This document shows, piece after piece, positions 243-10,338 of a stretch of 52,459 bases of DNA. The translations under genes and the position numbers were made by a program. How positions within the stretch are numbered: the first letter of the stretch is position 1; every line of letters begins with the position of its first letter. Origin of the DNA: a virus. Location of the stretch: UHGV virus genome UHGV-0060500. One strand, written 5' to 3'. The notes beneath the pieces were generated by a model. The model saw only the letters and a list, made by a program, of their open reading frames with translations, did not search any database and was not told the origin of the DNA.

Positions 243-1433
243 ATGCTTACGGATACCAGGTTAAGGACTATTGCCAACAAGCCATATGACGGCCCAAGCG
301 AGATAGCTGATCGTGATGGCCTGTCAGCCAGGATAAGTCCAAAAGGGAAAATTACTTTCCAGTACCGTTACAGATTCAACGGTAAGCCAGTGCGAATGAA
401 GATCGGCGAGTACGGGAAAATGAGTCTGAAAGACGCCCGCTATGCGGTGGCTGAATACAGGGAGTTGCTTGCGAAAGGGAAGAATCCGGCACTGTGCGTA
501 AAGCAGGCCATAGCCTTTGAACAGGGCAAGAGATCGATAACAGACGTAGTGGAAGACTATCTATCCCTGCCGAACGTCATTAAGCTGGTGGCATATAAAG
601 AAGTCAAAAGCGCATTGATGCGCCATGTTGTCAACAAGTACGGCGACTACATAGCTGACGACGTAACGACAAAACAGTGGATGGATATATTTGGCGAGAT
701 CACTGCGGCGGGTCACGCGGTTACGGCTGGTTTGATATTGAAGCGAATGAAAATCATCGTTAACAGCGCAATCAGGCGCGGGCTAATGACTAACACGGCG
801 ATAAACAATATCCGTGTAGCTGACGTTGGCGAGCATTATGCGGTGGGGGAGCGTTACCTTTCATGTGAGGAGATAGGCCACTTCTGGCGCACGGTAGACA
901 GTTCGCAGATCTATCCGCAGAACAAAATAGCCTTAAAGCTATTATTGCTAACCGGGTGCAGGGTTGGTGAATTGCAGAAAATGAGAAGGGAACACCTAGA
1001 CCTGGACAACGGTGTGTGGACCGTTCCGGCGGCGGTGGCGAAGACAAGAAGTGAAATCAGGCGGGGATTATCTGACTTGTCGATAAAAATGCTCAGGGAG
1101 GTTTTAACCTCCCATGAGTATGATTATGTATTCCCGCCAGTGATTAACGGCGGCAACAGGCCAGTAAACGCATCAGTGATAAAAGTAGCTGCAATATTCG
1201 TGCGTAAAAGGATGGGCGGTAAATCATGGTCCTGTCACGACCTCCGCAGGACGTGCCGGACACACCTTTCAGCTATAGGTGTTCCGGTACATATTGCAGA
1301 AAAGGTCTTAGGCCATTCATTAAGGGGGATACTGGCGGTGTACGATAAATATGATTATCTTGATGAACAAAAGGAGGCACTAAATAAGTTTGCGGATTAT
1401 GTATTATCTTTGGCTGACGTTAAACCAATCTGA
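243..1433 (+). CDS. int: Tyrosine site-specific integrase (P4-like)
   Basis: 396 aa; N-terminal arm-binding-like region, C-terminal catalytic region with R...HDLRRT...H...Y pattern (CHDLRRTCRTHL, LGHS, VYDKYDY) typical of tyrosine recombinases. Confidence 0.85.
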   Translation: MLTDTRLRTIANKPYDGPSEIADRDGLSARISPKGKITFQYRYRFNGKPVRMKIGEYGKMSLKDARYAVAEYRELLAKGKNPALCVKQAIAFEQGKRSITDVVEDYLSLPNVIKLVAYKEVKSALMRHVVNKYGDYIADDVTTKQWMDIFGEITAAGHAVTAGLILKRMKIIVNSAIRRGLMTNTAINNIRVADVGEHYAVGERYLSCEEIGHFWRTVDSSQIYPQNKIALKLLLLTGCRVGELQKMRREHLDLDNGVWTVPAAVAKTRSEIRRGLSDLSIKMLREVLTSHEYDYVFPPVINGGNRPVNASVIKVAAIFVRKRMGGKSWSCHDLRRTCRTHLSAIGVPVHIAEKVLGHSLRGILAVYDKYDYLDEQKEALNKFADYVLSLADVKPI

Positions 1434-3951: not shown

Positions 3952-5367
3952 TTAAAAAGATGCGTTGTTCTGGCTGTTTCGTGGGGAGAATCTACTTGCC
4001 GCCGGACGTTGTTGCATTGACTGAATGCAAGCGGACGCCGCGCGGGCCTGGTCGCATGGGATGATGTTGCCGTTATCGTCAAACCGCTGGTAAACAGTCC
4101 CCGTTTTCCCGTGACGGTTTTTTGAAACGATGATCTCCATATATTCGCGGGCAACCGATTGTTCGTTGTAGTAGCCGTCGCGGTAGACCATGATGATCCG
4201 GTCTGCGTCCTGCTCAAGATTACCGGAATCACGCAGATCAGAATTGTTCGGGCGCTTGTTCGGTCGTTCCTCAACGCGGCGGGATAATTGCGCCAGCGCC
4301 GCCACTGGCACGCGCAACTCTTTCGCCATCATTTTCAATGACCACGACAATTGCCCTACGGCGAGATCATGACGTTCGGCCTTAGCCAGCTTCATTAACC
4401 CGATGTAGTCAATCATTACCATCCCCAGGTTAGGATGGTCCTGTTTCATCCGTTCGACGGTGGCGCGTATTTCCTCGACCGTTAACTGCGATGCGTCAAC
4501 AATCCACACATCGAGATCGGCAAGGGCACTCATTCCCTGGGCGACGTGCGCCCAACCTTCGTCATCCAGTTTTACCGGATTACGTAGGCAATCCGTTGAT
4601 AAGTTCCCAGCGCCAGCGATAGCACGTTCAGTCATCTGATCGAGCGACATTTCAAGCGTGAACAGCAAAACGCCGACCCGCTGACCTTCGCCGCCAGGGT
4701 ATGGACGTTCAGCCGCCGCGCGGGCAATTGCCAACGCCAACGCCGATTTACCAGACCCTGGGCGTCCGGCGATAAGCACCAGATCAGTAGCATTAATGCC
4801 GCCTAACATTTCGTCGAGTGGGTCAATACCTGTTTTGATGTTGTCAGAGTTCACGCCACACTCCATGCGTTTACTTAGCACTTCCGTGTATTCCTGGACC
4901 GCATCGCGCAACAGCACCGGGATAATTTGATCTTTTGTTACCTTTAATTTTGAATACCGGGAATCAAAATCTTTCATCGTCTCTTTGACGACCTCAAGTG
5001 TCCCAGTTTCCAGTTTGTAGCGCATATCGTCGATGAGTTCCAACATCTGCCGCCGCTGGTGCTCTTCACGTAGTAGCTGTGCATATCCCTTCAGGTTGGC
5101 AGCAGAAGGGCACGATCGCGCCGTTTGCATTAGCGGTACAAAGTTTTCATTACCAATCTCATCACCAACCAGTAACGCGTCGATAAGATTTCTGTTTCTG
5201 GCTTGCGCCCGGATAATTTCAAAAGCCCGCTTATATAGCGGAATAGTGAATACTTCAGGATCGAGCGTAGCAAGAACGTCTTGCGCGTTAGGTGTAAGCC
5301 CGCCTAACAGGAGTCCGCCTATCACAGCAGACTCTCGTTCTTGTCGCAGTGAGTTAACAGAATCCAT
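3952..5367 (-). CDS. Replicative DNA helicase, DnaB family
   Basis: 471 aa; Walker A GRPGSGKSALALAIA, DnaB-like N-terminal and RecA-like C-terminal regions. Confidence 0.9.
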   Translation of the reverse strand: MDSVNSLRQERESAVIGGLLLGGLTPNAQDVLATLDPEVFTIPLYKRAFEIIRAQARNRNLIDALLVGDEIGNENFVPLMQTARSCPSAANLKGYAQLLREEHQRRQMLELIDDMRYKLETGTLEVVKETMKDFDSRYSKLKVTKDQIIPVLLRDAVQEYTEVLSKRMECGVNSDNIKTGIDPLDEMLGGINATDLVLIAGRPGSGKSALALAIARAAAERPYPGGEGQRVGVLLFTLEMSLDQMTERAIAGAGNLSTDCLRNPVKLDDEGWAHVAQGMSALADLDVWIVDASQLTVEEIRATVERMKQDHPNLGMVMIDYIGLMKLAKAERHDLAVGQLSWSLKMMAKELRVPVAALAQLSRRVEERPNKRPNNSDLRDSGNLEQDADRIIMVYRDGYYNEQSVAREYMEIIVSKNRHGKTGTVYQRFDDNGNIIPCDQARAASACIQSMQQRPAASRFSPRNSQNNASF

Positions 5368-5385
5368 TATGGCATTACCTCCGGT

Positions 5386-6504
5386 TTACAAAATGGAATA
5401 TTCAGGGTAATAAACAAAGCGCCCGATTTCCCCGTGATCAGGACTGTAAATTATTACCGCCGCCAGACGCCGCGACCGCCAGCCGCCATTCGTTGAATAA
5501 GCGTCTTTGCCCGCTAACGTGCCGTGATACTCAACAACGCCTAACGATGATTCAATCAACCGTTGGTGGTGCCAGTGCCCGCAATGAGCATAAACCGCCG
5601 CAGACTTACCGAAATCTTCCCGCCAGTCAGAGACGCAGGCAGACAACAAATTTTCTGGTTTTTTGATGGTGTGTCCGTGGTGGTAAGCAAGGAATGTTTT
5701 GCCGTACTGTGTGTGGTGTACGATAGCAGGTGACACGTCAACCGTTACGCGCGGTTCATCTTCGTAAAAAGCCGCCAGCGCAGCACGTAGCCAAATCATC
5801 CCCGACTGATCGTGATTACCTGATAATACCTGGATTTCGATTTCTTTGTGGTTTAACAACATCTTTCCTACAGCACGGCGGACTGACCGGATCGCCACAT
5901 AAACAAGTTTTGCGTAGCGTGAATCGCAATCAAGTACGTGATTGCTTGATGGCGTCACTGGCAACAGCCCATCAGTGTGAAGAACATCCCCACCGAGAAG
6001 CAATACAGCTTTTTCAGACATCGGCGCTGCGCCTACCGCGTAGTCAAAGAAATCATTTAGCACGCGTTCAGCGATCCCGGTGTCGTAGCTCTCACCGCAT
6101 TCAGCTTTATGAGCAAGCGCCCCGATATGCAGATCGAATACCGGATAAAGGGCCAGGCTTTTTTGGAAATCAATTTCCGGCACTGGCACGGCCTCCGCGC
6201 GTGGCATGTCTTCCGTGAAAGCATCGCAAGCCGCTTGCATTAGCCTTTCCATTTCATCGCGATCACGGGCTGTTTTAATCCAGCGCATAATCACATTGCC
6301 ATCCTTATCGACGAGCAATGACTCACCATTGACGCCAAAGCCCGGCGCGCGACGCGTGGATATTAAACCGCGTTTCGCCAACCGTGCGCCCAGGCGTTCG
6401 ACGTTGCGTTTTGCCATTCCATATTCTTCTGCTATTTGCTTGTAAGTTTTCCCCTTGTTGTACTCGGCGATCAGTTCCTCATCGCTGATCTTTCTTTGTG
6501 ACAT
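5386..6504 (-). CDS. HTH domain protein fused to calcineurin-like metallophosphoesterase domain (replication-module protein)
   Basis: 372 aa; N-terminal HTH (TYKQIAEEYGMAKRNVERL); phosphoesterase motifs FDLHIG, GGDVLHTDG, SGNHDQ, GHWHH. Confidence 0.6.
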   Translation of the reverse strand: MSQRKISDEELIAEYNKGKTYKQIAEEYGMAKRNVERLGARLAKRGLISTRRAPGFGVNGESLLVDKDGNVIMRWIKTARDRDEMERLMQAACDAFTEDMPRAEAVPVPEIDFQKSLALYPVFDLHIGALAHKAECGESYDTGIAERVLNDFFDYAVGAAPMSEKAVLLLGGDVLHTDGLLPVTPSSNHVLDCDSRYAKLVYVAIRSVRRAVGKMLLNHKEIEIQVLSGNHDQSGMIWLRAALAAFYEDEPRVTVDVSPAIVHHTQYGKTFLAYHHGHTIKKPENLLSACVSDWREDFGKSAAVYAHCGHWHHQRLIESSLGVVEYHGTLAGKDAYSTNGGWRSRRLAAVIIYSPDHGEIGRFVYYPEYSIL

Positions 6505-6681: not shown

Positions 6682-7818
6682 TTAGGATATAGCACAACGG
6701 AAAAACTTGCACCCCAAATAATCTTCAATGCGTTTTTGTCTTATCGCATCGCTTTTTACTTGCCGTTTGTGATGTGACTCATCAATTTCTACAGCAACGT
6801 TATTCACAGGATCGTAGCCATCAATAAAATACTTATTGCCAGCAACATCAACAGGATATTGCCTTATTAATTTAACTCCTTTTAGTTTTTCATACATAGT
6901 TAAGCCAGCATGTTCATAACGCTTCCTAATCATATTTTTACAATTATCTCTCATTTCTGATAATTTCGAGTCGTACTCCTTTTTTATTTCTTCAATTACA
7001 TTTTTATCGCTTTTTAATTCAATAAAGTTTTCTATGTCGTTATAATTCCCGCATTCAAAATTATTATTAAGACCTTTATTTTCACCCCATGCATGATACT
7101 TTTCTGCTATCTTATCGCTAATATATCTTTCATACCCATAATTTGTTTTAACTATAAAATATTCAATATTTAAATCAATGGTAAACTCATCATTATTGAG
7201 GTGTTCAGTTAAAAACGCATCTGGATCTGCAATATCGCTTGAATGGAACAACCTTACCCATAGCTTTTCTATTGATACTCCGCGAGTGACGAACAACCAT
7301 TTTTTGTACTTTTCAGCATCTTCTTTTGACACATACACAGAACATCGCCCAGGAGTATCACTCGTTTCAACATAATTGTTACACCATAAAATATAATTAT
7401 AAGCATAAGGACTATCTTTTTTGGTGTTATTTGAATATGTATTAAAGATATCTTGCAAGTCAACTAATCCACAAGATTCAATAACTGGCTTAACCCATTT
7501 TTCATTATATTCATAATGTCTATATTTACCAGGTGTAACGAATCTAATAAACGTTATGGGTGTGATATACACATCATCACCATCAACAATAAAATCCTTG
7601 TATTCCTCAAATCCGTAAAGATCAGAGTATTTAACAAATGATTTAAGTCTATCAATTTCAAGTTCAGAAACCAGATTATTAACAGACAGTAATTGCGTGT
7701 CCTTACAATTGAGTTTCATATGATAAGTAGCAATCACATATACCTCCTTTATTAATTTTCTATATAACGCCTCAGACGCGCTACAACGCAAAAATCCCAC
7801 CGCGTAACCCGTTTGCAC
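6682..7818 (-). CDS. AT-rich moron protein with C-terminal PD-(D/E)xK (DUF559/Vsr-like) nuclease-like domain; true start probably 7720-7745
   Basis: Markedly lower GC than neighbours; C-terminus YPVDVAGNKYFIDGYDPVNNVAVEIDESHHKRQ...RQKRIEDYLGCKFFR fits the restriction-endonuclease-like fold pattern; strong SD AAGGAGG near 7750. Confidence 0.55.
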   Translation of the reverse strand: MQTGYAVGFLRCSASEALYRKLIKEVYVIATYHMKLNCKDTQLLSVNNLVSELEIDRLKSFVKYSDLYGFEEYKDFIVDGDDVYITPITFIRFVTPGKYRHYEYNEKWVKPVIESCGLVDLQDIFNTYSNNTKKDSPYAYNYILWCNNYVETSDTPGRCSVYVSKEDAEKYKKWLFVTRGVSIEKLWVRLFHSSDIADPDAFLTEHLNNDEFTIDLNIEYFIVKTNYGYERYISDKIAEKYHAWGENKGLNNNFECGNYNDIENFIELKSDKNVIEEIKKEYDSKLSEMRDNCKNMIRKRYEHAGLTMYEKLKGVKLIRQYPVDVAGNKYFIDGYDPVNNVAVEIDESHHKRQVKSDAIRQKRIEDYLGCKFFRCAIS

Positions 7819-8125: not shown

Positions 8126-9067
8126 TCAAAGAGCGCCAGCGCGCGTATCACGTAGCGTTTTTGGTTTAAGCAGGAAATCAAGTGTCGCAGTGAAGCCATT
8201 GCCGAAGTAAAAATCTGAAGCCGTGTTTTTGAACGTTTCGAAGTAGGCGACAAAGCCGTTAATGCTTTTGTCTTTCAGGTAGTCAGTGAACGCATAGATC
8301 TTGCGTTCAAGATCCCGATCCAGTTCGGCAGGTGGTAACAGGCCGTCAAACGTGCTGTTAAATGCTTCCACCACGTCGGCAGCGTTTACAGTAGATGATA
8401 GCTTGCGCCATTGTTCAGCATCAGCCAGATACCCATCGAATTTAGTTACCCGGCAAATGTTAACAGGCTTAGGCACTCCACCACGGCTACGCCATTGTGT
8501 CAAAGCCCATTCGATTACTAATGTGATCTCATCCTCCGTGTATGCCTTACGTGTTTTTGTTTCTGTCAGTAGTTCGATAAATGGTTTAGCGTCACGACAC
8601 TTGCATCCTGCCTTGTCGTTGTAGAAGGCCAGGCAACGATAAGCCGCCAGATTAACCTCCCGATCTTCTTCGCTGATAGACCAGTCTTTTTCCAATACAC
8701 GGAGTGTATTGTTTTTAATGTTCTCTTTACTGGTTATATATGACTGGTTAGGGTGACTCTGTGACACTACCCCCGGTGACTCTGTGTCACTACCCCGGTG
8801 ACTCTGTGTCACTACCCCCGGTGTCACAGTGACACTACCATGCAATGACGGAAGGACTATTACATAGAAATTACTAGTTTGCTCTTTTCCTCCGATTAAG
8901 TATCTTGGTTGTTTAATCAACAACCCTTTTTCACAAAGTGAGTCTACAGCCCTCATAGCTGTTCTTTTGCTGATCTCACACTCCTTTGCTATGTGATGGT
9001 AAGAAGGGTAACACTCGCCGTTATCATTAGCGTTATCAGCTAACTTCAACAGCACTAGTTTGTGCAT
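8126..9067 (-). CDS. Replication initiation protein (lambda O-like, N-terminal winged HTH, conserved phage C-terminal domain)
   Basis: N-terminus LKLADNANDNGECYPSYHHIAKECEISKRTAMRAV typical of phage replication initiator HTH; iterons inside the gene; start taken at Met 9067 (SD GAGGT), longer ORF-track start to 9133 is unlikely. Confidence 0.75.
   Translation of the reverse strand: MHKLVLLKLADNANDNGECYPSYHHIAKECEISKRTAMRAVDSLCEKGLLIKQPRYLIGGKEQTSNFYVIVLPSLHGSVTVTPGVVTQSHRGSDTESPGVVSQSHPNQSYITSKENIKNNTLRVLEKDWSISEEDREVNLAAYRCLAFYNDKAGCKCRDAKPFIELLTETKTRKAYTEDEITLVIEWALTQWRSRGGVPKPVNICRVTKFDGYLADAEQWRKLSSTVNAADVVEAFNSTFDGLLPPAELDRDLERKIYAFTDYLKDKSINGFVAYFETFKNTASDFYFGNGFTATLDFLLKPKTLRDTRAGAL
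8752..8840. repeat. Origin iterons: three and a half copies of the 22-23 bp repeat GGTGACTCTGTGTCACTACCCC inside the O-like gene, followed by an AT-rich segment
   Basis: Direct tandem repeats each containing the inverted half-sites GTGAC/GTCAC; the AT-rich stretch 8690-8750 lies downstream in the O reading direction, as in lambda ori. Confidence 0.7.
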
Positions 9068-9232
9068 TGGGTCGCCGACCTCAGTATGGAAGACCTCTAC
9101 CATTAGCCGCATACTCATAAGCATTAACCTCATGGCGAACTAAAACATTAACTGATAAACACAGAAGAAACCTGGCAGCTGGCTGATTAGGCCGCTTCTT
9201 TTCAGTTGATGCAGTGCAGAGATAGTGTCGCG

Positions 9233-9385
9233 TTACGAAATTTCGCACATTTCCGCGATCTCTTCTGGCGTTACTTCGCTTTTGCCGTTGCATCCAGCCT
9301 TTGTTGCCAGTGCAATTAAGATGAGTTTTTGCGCCGGATCATTGTTATTCAGGCGAATATCAAAAGCCTTGCGCACGTAATACAT
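9233..9385 (-). CDS. Small protein (50 aa) paralogous to the N-terminal HTH segment of the O-like initiator
   Basis: DPAQKLILIALATKAGCNGKSEVTPEEIAEMCEIS aligns with O residues DPMHKLVLLKLADNANDNGECYPSYHHIAKECEIS; strong SD AGGAGA 8 nt upstream of the ATG at 9385. Confidence 0.45.
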   Translation of the reverse strand: MYYVRKAFDIRLNNNDPAQKLILIALATKAGCNGKSEVTPEEIAEMCEIS

Positions 9386-9427
9386 ATTCTTTTCTCCTAT
9401 GGTTAGAGTGAACGCGCGGGCGGGCAT

Positions 9428-9690
9428 CCCATTAGCATTAGATAGCAGTGACTGACCGCTGAACAGATCCCGCCGTTGCGTGATATTTGTTTTTCGCTTC
9501 GCAGCGACACCGGATTTTTAAAGAGCTTAAGGTAAGTGCCTTTTTGTGCCTTCAGTTATCTTTTTCCTTGCGTCTTTGCAAGTATGGCCTTACCTTGTCT
9601 GCAAGTTTACAAAATGGAATTTTAAGATCAAGGCTTAAAATACACGTTTTGTGACTTGCATCAAACTTTTTGAGGTTATAGGGTAGCGAC
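9428..9690. promoter_or_regulatory. Divergent immunity-region control region between the replication operon and the cI-like repressor
   Basis: 263 bp non-coding region between divergent operons; contains the repeated TGCAAGT elements and one copy of the dispersed GTTTACAAAATGG motif (9605-9617). Confidence 0.5.
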
Positions 9691-10338
9691 ATGAAAACAA
9701 AATGGTATGACTTAGCAAAGCAGCTCATGCGGGCGCAGGGCATGAGCCAGGATTCACTCGCGGATCGTATGGGGATAACTAAAGGCGGCCTGTCACACTG
9801 GCTGAACGGTCGCCGAGAGCCAAATCTTGAAGATATTGCGCGGATTATGCGCGAGCTTGGTCGTCGGCAGTTTACTGTTACACATGATGGCATGGTCATT
9901 GATGATTCTGTTTCTAATACACTTCAGGCCGTGCCGCCGCGTGATTTAGGTAGTTACCCGGTTATTGACTGGAAGGACACAGTAAACAATATGGATGACG
10001 CAAGGCGTTCAGCATTACGACACGTTACGACTAGCGTTATTTGTTCAGATGACAGTTACTGGCTGGTTGCCAAAGGTGAATCAATGAACGCGCCGCAGGG
10101 GTTGAGCATCCCGGCGGGGACGATGATACTTGTGGACCCGCACGCGCCAGCTATTGACGGCAAACTGGTTATAGCCCAGCTTGAGGAAGGGCAGATACCG
10201 ACGTTTAAACAGTTGATTATTGATGGAGGTCAAAGGCTTTTACGTTCGCTCAATCCGCTGTATCCGCCAATCCCTATGAATCCAGAATCAAAAATTATAG
10301 GCGTGGTGGTTGATGCGAAGATCGTAAACCTGCCATAA
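9691..10338 (+). CDS. cI: CI-like repressor (HTH_XRE plus S24 LexA-like peptidase domain)
   Basis: 215 aa; N-terminal HTH (QDSLADRMGITKGGLSHWLNGRREP); C-terminal GESM...K self-cleavage motif pattern. Confidence 0.85.
   Translation: MKTKWYDLAKQLMRAQGMSQDSLADRMGITKGGLSHWLNGRREPNLEDIARIMRELGRRQFTVTHDGMVIDDSVSNTLQAVPPRDLGSYPVIDWKDTVNNMDDARRSALRHVTTSVICSDDSYWLVAKGESMNAPQGLSIPAGTMILVDPHAPAIDGKLVIAQLEEGQIPTFKQLIIDGGQRLLRSLNPLYPPIPMNPESKIIGVVVDAKIVNLP

Follow-up and report, generated by a model that had tools for sequence, protein, structure and literature searches.

Results

A short open reading frame between a repressor gene and an initiator gene

The window, i.e. the whole stretch of 52,459 nucleotides of the virus genome UHGV-0060500 that was analyzed, contains a gene for a CI-like repressor and, diverging from it, an operon whose first ORF is a short one of 50 codons, with a gene for an O-like replication initiator directly downstream. 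The features discussed below are listed here in window positions.

243..1433: integrase gene, just after the host flank (1-69)
8126..9118, minus strand: O-like replication initiator, 330 aa from ATG 9118, intact; longest ORF from 9133 (335 aa)
8648..9389, minus strand: exchangeable cassette of small winged-helix gene, N-terminal domain of O and iterons, delimited by blastn breakpoints
8752..8840: origin-type iterons in the O gene, four tandem copies of ~22 nt, GGTGACTCTGTGACACTACCCC, from a repeat search and the sequence
9140..9232, minus strand: former coding tail of the small gene, codons 52-81 and the original TAG (9142..9140), in frame and with no further lesion
9233..9235, minus strand: premature ochre TAA at codon 51 (TTA, Leu, in relatives), from a three-way DNA alignment and a codon table of 25 loci
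9233..9385, minus strand: truncated ORF, 50 sense codons and the premature TAA, the nonsense allele of the mEp021 gp14-type 81-aa winged-helix gene
9385..9383, minus strand: start codon ATG of the small gene
9398..9394, minus strand: Shine-Dalgarno sequence AGGAG, 8 nt upstream of ATG 9385, conserved in mEp010 and mEp021
9494..9526, minus strand: candidate nutL in the leader, inferred from the sequence, with a boxA-like GCTCTTTAAAAA (9526..9515) and a TCGCT-GCGA-AGCGA hairpin (9507..9494)
9691..10338, plus strand: CI-like repressor with HTH_3 and Peptidase_S24 domains, divergent from the small gene, homologue of Rep021 (PMC11893012)

The original prediction, of a 50-aa ORF at 9233-9385 with a strong Shine-Dalgarno sequence, is exact in its coordinates and in the AGGAG preceding the ATG. 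The frame can be extended to an upstream ATG at 9427, giving the 64-aa form found in the ORF listing. This longer form was rejected because a 1-nt deletion in the spacer of mEp010 puts the extension out of frame, and ATG 9385 is thus the likely start.

The N-terminal homology to O that had been claimed for the ORF was also found. In a single BLASTP comparison the 50-aa product and the O protein of the window share 16 of 35 residues in an ungapped alignment (E 2e-7) that stops at the CEIS motif, as predicted. Extended past the stop codon, the alignment of the small protein with O runs on to 22 identities in 59 positions (E 2e-10). A 14-nt direct repeat, TTGCATCC(T/A)GCCTT, was observed at 8601-8614, in the part of O encoding the C-terminal domain, and at 9288-9301 in the small gene; both copies encode 'KAGC', about 0.05 such matches are expected by chance, and the repeat is kept in a diverged relative (locus L005, at 1996-2010 and 2689-2703).

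The O-like protein combines an N-terminal HTH_36 winged helix (Pfam, 5e-15) with a C-terminal domain common to initiators of the Lin1244_N type, and matches PHROG initiator families. O appears to have its own ribosome-binding site, GAGG, 9 nt ahead of ATG 9118. In mEp021, nutL lies between gp14 and gp15 (PMC11893012). The predicted RNA folds of the leader and of the inter-cistronic stretch were no different from those of shuffled sequence (z -0.18 and -0.26), a sigma-70 promoter scan of 8700-9750 gave no hits, and no known RNA family scored above threshold near the small-gene locus.

Assignment to the mEpimmI group

The region of the window is similar to that of coliphages mEp010, mEp013, mEp044, mEp554 and mEp021 (90-96% DNA identity), members of mEpimmI, a Nus-dependent, non-lambdoid coliphage group that was described recently and is reportedly prevalent in the human gut (PMC11893012). 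Bases 1-69 are 100% identical to a fragment of an E. coli diguanylate cyclase gene, and the usual attachment locus of mEpimmI is ydaM, a putative diguanylate cyclase gene (PMC11893012). Taken with the integrase gene that begins shortly after this flank, these similarities indicate that the window is an mEpimmI (mEp021-like) prophage in its integrated state, read from the left junction.

Apart from the small gene, the prophage appears to be in good order. All ORFs of mEp010 of at least 90 aa that have both an annotated gene and a homologue are full length in the window, including those for integrase, helicase, O, CI, Erf, SSB, the large head and tail proteins and host specificity protein J. What the comparison flagged as shortened were just antisense ORFs lacking annotation and a single case, the homologue of mEp010_104, that was considered as a second truncated gene and rejected, the start call in mEp010 being over-extended. 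No tRNA gene was found in the window, and hence no phage-borne nonsense suppressor.

Two further differences in gene content were observed in the neighbourhood. A homing endonuclease gene located in mEp010 at 5304-5894, between the helicase gene and its neighbour, is missing in the window at 5367-5386. A slot shortly downstream of O (6682-7818, minus strand) is highly variable among otherwise near-identical loci (L006-L021), holding a gene for a 378-aa protein in the window and elsewhere genes for a DUF4379 zinc-ribbon protein of 307 or 240 aa or for a 351-aa protein; in other relatives, a protein of the Rha family or with an ANT domain is encoded close to this slot.

A single base separates the short ORF from an intact gene

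The homologues of the small gene in mEp010 (mEp010_17, WWQ70180.1) and mEp021 (gp14, AXN54133.1) are 246 nt long and encode 81 aa; the latter is annotated as 'putative helix-turn-helix domain-containing protein, similar to MarR'. The 50 residues encoded in the window are 100% identical to the first 50 of mEp010_17, and translation through the stop codon matches mEp010_17 at all 81 positions except the stop itself. At the DNA level, codons 1-51 match those of mEp010 except for the base that creates the stop (window position 9234; plus-strand T here, A in relatives), a T-to-A change in the gene that turns TTA into TAA; codons 52-81 contain one synonymous difference. Following the stop, there is no in-frame ATG, GTG or TTG for a restart until two codons before the TAG.

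The 81-aa gene is intact in all five sequenced mEp phages with this cassette, hereafter type A (mEp010, mEp013, mEp044, mEp554 and mEp021), and in all four prophages with the type-A cassette among complete RefSeq E. coli genomes. Codon 51 specifies Leu in type A, His in one related protein (P0005) and Val or Leu in the alternative, type-B cassette described below, so that the stop codon is the derived state. The window copy shares synteny and sequence identity with the mEp021 gp14-type family and lacks the complete ORF of its members (81 aa, or 84-85 aa in type B). One base away from intact orthologues that are under purifying selection, it fits a young nonsense allele in this respect.

These comparisons bear directly on the original prediction, which had described a truncated paralogue of the initiator N-terminus and offered recombination between two initiator alleles as a cause. 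The homology to the initiator and the truncation, which falls inside the winged-helix domain, are both borne out; the causes proposed for the truncation are not, since a single T-to-A substitution at codon 51 of a gene that is intact in relatives accounts for it. Alignment with related phages had been suggested as one check, on the understanding that a single intact longer gene in relatives and a frameshifted, untranslated copy here would speak against a distinct short paralogue. The relatives do have a single intact longer gene at this place, and the lesion proves to be nonsense rather than frameshift.

Selection and predicted structure of the 81-aa protein

Among intact alleles, dN/dS (Nei-Gojobori) ranged from 0.05 to 0.16 in comparisons involving mEp010 or mEp021. 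For the tail alone (codons 52-81), mEp010 and mEp021 differ by six synonymous and no non-synonymous changes. This substitution pattern indicates that purifying selection covers the full length of the 81-aa gene, including the part no longer translated in the window.

The structure was modelled with AlphaFold2 for a protein (P0002) that is 96% identical to that of mEp010; the alignment was shallow and the pLDDT 69. The model has helices at residues 2-9, 17-29, 40-47 and 51-63 and strands at 67-70 and 73-76, i.e. a winged helix-turn-helix. The stop codon replaces the residue with which the predicted recognition helix (51-63) begins, so that this helix and the wing (67-76) would both be removed from the product, with helices 1 and 2 being kept. 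The N-terminal ~35 residues, the most conserved part of the family, are retained. According to the model, the 50-aa product would have lost DNA binding and probably has no activity. This makes a DNA-binding role unlikely for the small dominant-negative or regulatory fragment that the original prediction had considered.

Database searches placed the protein only broadly. Foldseek of the model against the PDB returned just generic winged helices of the CRP, MarR and LexA kind (E 3.6e-3 or higher), and a sequence search of the PDB gave weak generic winged-helix matches alone (E at least 0.18). The intact protein matched Pfam HTH_36 over residues 17-67 with 20.4 bits, under the cut-off of 25 bits, and the 64-aa product of the window had no Pfam match. 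Searches of NCBIfam and PADLOC yielded nothing meaningful.

The small gene belongs to an exchangeable replication cassette

In most mEpimmI prophages (31 of 35 matches in complete E. coli genomes), as well as in mEp515 and MagusPhagus, the small gene is part of the type-B cassette. Type B and the window lose homology at window 9390, 5 nt ahead of the ATG, and regain it within O at 8647. Type B encodes an 85-aa small winged-helix protein, 35% identical to that of type A (E 7e-16), and an initiator with a Lin1244_N N-terminal domain, different iterons and a C-terminal domain shared with the O protein of the window. One example is the following.

L004, 2205-3000: type-B cassette, iterons GGTCATGA

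Across the cassette break, the cI/operator region of the window is 99.2% identical to that of a type-B prophage. The constancy of this region next to small proteins that are only 35% identical argues against an operator-specific, Cro-like role. The expectation of a cro/cII-type regulator at this place, raised in the original prediction, therefore holds for position and fails for co-variation with the immunity region.

In type B the 3' half of the small gene (nt ~97-247 of the ORF in loci L004, L028, L029 and L030) is hypervariable. It encodes the predicted recognition helix and wing and assorts independently both of the initiator with its iterons and of the operator region. Loci L004 and L028 agree in initiator and iterons (GGTCATGA x4), and the recognition halves of their small genes show 54-66% nucleotide identity, whereas L028 and L030 share a small-protein type and have different iterons (CCATGGCA in the latter comparison). 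These mismatches speak against specific binding to the iterons, at least for type B, where the comparison is informative, type A being uninformative in this respect.

The 81-aa and 85-aa proteins match the PHROG families 'replication initiation protein' and 'O-like' over the N-terminal 70-90 positions (E 2e-10 for the 81-aa protein). In a tblastn search of phage genomes, the matches outside mEpimmI comprised only the first ~70 residues of replication proteins (SfV, ST64B, mEp460, cdtI and Stx2 phages). A profile search of 1.84 billion representatives gave 1413 matches at E up to 1e-3; the best 150 of these were mostly proteins of 200-400 aa aligned at residues 1 to ~71, and only two representative clusters had E below 1e-30. 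With relatives that are mostly initiator N-termini and just two close clusters, the intact small gene is an initiator N-terminal domain encoded on its own, and it is limited to the mEpimmI group. The small gene is not discussed in the mEpimmI paper, where no function is reported for it (PMC11893012).

Among the loci compared, that in the complete genome of E. coli strain 190 (L034, NZ_CP020520.1 2709839-2710246) has an O-like gene annotated with 408 nt beside an intact small gene, and its initiator may be truncated.

Distribution of the TAA allele

An exact-sequence look-up of the 50-aa product returned 150 index blocks, and 24 contigs were read, from NCBI E. coli assemblies, Logan and ENA gut metagenomes; the same allele, called as the 64-aa form, was on 16 further contigs, one of them a JGI metagenome. 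In a cluster table the 50-aa sequence (UniRef A0A376LRC9_ECOLX) was present on at least 61 contigs. The total for the TAA allele, with the 16 contigs of the 64-aa form, is at least 77 contigs from four data sources (NCBI, ENA, Logan and JGI). A pattern scan added SKEU01000186.1, a contig of 52,982 bp with the TAA allele; an exact-pattern scan of IMG/VR for either allele gave no matches. A 383-aa protein in the 50-aa cluster (P0023) is an unrelated sequence and was discarded as a clustering artefact.

The 50-aa allele is the commonest exact type-A sequence (at least 61 contigs, compared to 39 for the mEp021 sequence). In all 20 further loci that were read, codon 51 is TAA, the tail is unbroken and the O ORF is open, and O is full length (335 aa) in each of the 16 TAA loci that span the O gene. 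A comparison over 2.3 kb of 17 sequences, i.e. these 16 loci and the window, showed at most five variable sites in the ~1.3 kb of small gene and O, and two loci (L011 and L018) were identical to the window throughout. Around this near-clonal segment, cI comes in two variants (~20 differing sites), and the gene downstream of O is one of at least four. The allele occurs in none of the isolated mEp phages; its long records are E. coli genome contigs or phage-sized metagenome contigs. Taken together, the near-identity of the segment and the number of contigs suggest an allele that is young yet widely distributed, and unexpectedly common in E. coli prophages.

Independent disruptions of the small-gene family were observed in both cassette types (P0022, P0047, P0055, P0056 and P0057). 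They include a form of 47 aa on a background of the mEp021 type. P0047, on at least six contigs, lacks helix 2 and the start of helix 3 through an in-frame deletion between two 'VHDA' repeats, and further short forms are present in the type-B cassette.

Discussion

A probable recent loss-of-function allele of a conserved gene

The explanation that best covers the whole of these observations, to which we assign a probability of roughly 0.8, is that the ORF is a Leu51 nonsense allele (TTA to TAA) of a conserved 81-aa gene whose product is most probably null or nearly so. The point mutation cuts the winged-helix gene immediately before the recognition helix, and the remaining 50-aa peptide would be unable to bind DNA. 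The L51ochre mutation is presumably recent, and its loss of function appears to be tolerated, as would be the case if the small gene were dispensable for prophage maintenance; the independent disruptions in both cassette types fit such dispensability. The type-A initiator's own HTH_36 domain may be partly redundant with the small protein. Expression of O would be spared by its own ribosome-binding site, and antitermination by Gp17 (N-like) at the candidate nutL would limit Rho-dependent polarity. Antitermination is generally known to blunt polarity in N-type systems. The account of mEpimmI (PMC11893012) was also drawn upon for this point. The allele may have spread among E. coli prophages by descent, by recombination or by both.

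The frequency of the allele is high for a plain null, and it is possible to ask whether the mutation has been favored. If the intact protein promotes lytic growth or induction, in a Cro-like or replication-activating manner, its loss would ground the prophage, and the allele would then be passed on by vertical descent. The small gene does occupy the cro position, heading the operon that runs away from cI, the host flank at 1-69 marks the window as an integrated prophage, none of the long records of the allele is an isolated phage, and disrupted alleles occur in both cassette types. Yet a recognition half that varies widely beside a cI/operator region that is ~99% identical is not what an operator-specific Cro would lead one to expect, the remainder of the prophage is intact, and the cassette has changed partners, with two or more cI variants on one side and four or more downstream contexts on the other, which suggests ongoing exchange and not a dead end. 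We consider selection for loss unlikely, although less so than any of the readings that follow.

Alternatively, the 50-aa fragment might be a functional micro-protein, kept by selection for contacts with the initiator, with a homologue from a co-resident phage or with a host factor. Its ribosome-binding site and start codon are intact, residues 1-35 are conserved in a family whose recognition half is hypervariable, the allele is common and found in several genomic contexts, and the gene has accumulated no second lesion. Against this, the fragment amounts to about half of a small winged-helix domain, and such fragments would usually fail to fold. The allele differs from mEp010 by the stop and one synonymous site, so that the lack of decay would reflect youth alone, one derivative (P0007) already has an amino-acid change, and the allele is found in none of the isolated plaque-forming mEp phages. 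A maintained micro-protein therefore seems to us improbable. Only marginally better placed is the more inclusive proposal that L51ochre is a selected variant, be it as a partner-binding micro-protein or as an adaptive loss that alters how the prophage replicates or is induced, with the conserved N-terminal 35-50 residues contacting a partner and the recognition half acting as an independently exchanged specificity module.

Two other readings have little to recommend them for the allele itself. The ORF could be the leftover 5' end of a former O gene, a remnant of recombination between two initiator alleles: residue 1 of the family aligns with residue 1 of initiators of 200-400 aa, both in PHROG and in the phage-genome matches, and the small gene is itself part of a replication cassette that can be exchanged. 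It is indeed plausible, from the alignments, that the 81-aa family as a whole derives from the 5' end of an initiator gene. As an account of the short ORF, however, such a remnant is very improbable, for it fails to explain why the 50-aa end is a point nonsense mutation in a conserved, selected 81-aa gene, and the two forms of the family, which share only 35% identity and are both preserved as intact ORFs, point to some age. The single-base difference might bring to mind an error of sequencing or assembly, but this is excluded: dozens of separate assemblies, of isolates as well as metagenomes and from four data sources, have the same base.

The L51ochre allele thus explains away what looked like a designed short paralogue: it is a point-mutated copy of a phage gene annotated as hypothetical. 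For work on mEpimmI phages, the first leftward early gene would be of interest as a stand-alone origin-binding domain of an initiator with a hypervariable recognition half, one that appears to track neither immunity nor the origin repeats. Being natural and common, the ochre allele may serve as a ready-made knockout for probing the function of the small gene.

Comparison with known systems

The likeness of the small gene to lambda cro and cII is one of position, a small DNA-binding protein being encoded by the first early gene divergent from the repressor gene and ahead of the initiator. The predicted fold is a winged helix, in contrast to the Cro/CI-type HTH, nutL lies upstream of the small gene in mEpimmI rather than downstream, and the small protein does not co-vary with the repressor/operator module. 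No sequence relationship to Cro or CII was found with Pfam and NCBIfam.

With the O-type initiators (Pfam HTH_36, PF13730, and Phage_rep_O, PF04492; PHROG 4617, 8540 and 391) the intact small protein aligns from residue 1. It differs from them in having no linker, no iteron-encoding segment and no C-terminal domain; its variable half does not co-vary with the iterons, and the window copy is predicted to lack the recognition helix as well.

Forms of initiators that consist of the DNA-binding domain only are known to act as repressors, e.g. E2-TR and E8^E2 of papillomaviruses and the short pi proteins of plasmid R6K. The intact 81-aa protein resembles these in being, as it appears, the DNA-binding domain of an initiator without an effector domain. 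It is encoded by a separate gene, whereas the others arise from an internal start or as a splice form; moreover, the co-variation with iterons was negative in type B, and the window allele would be without the DNA-binding helix.

The gene order of the window, with a nutL leader, a small gene, an O-like gene and a divergent CI-like repressor, is that around mEp021 gp14 and mEp010_17. Unlike the window copy, these two genes have no TAA at codon 51 and encode 81 residues instead of 50.
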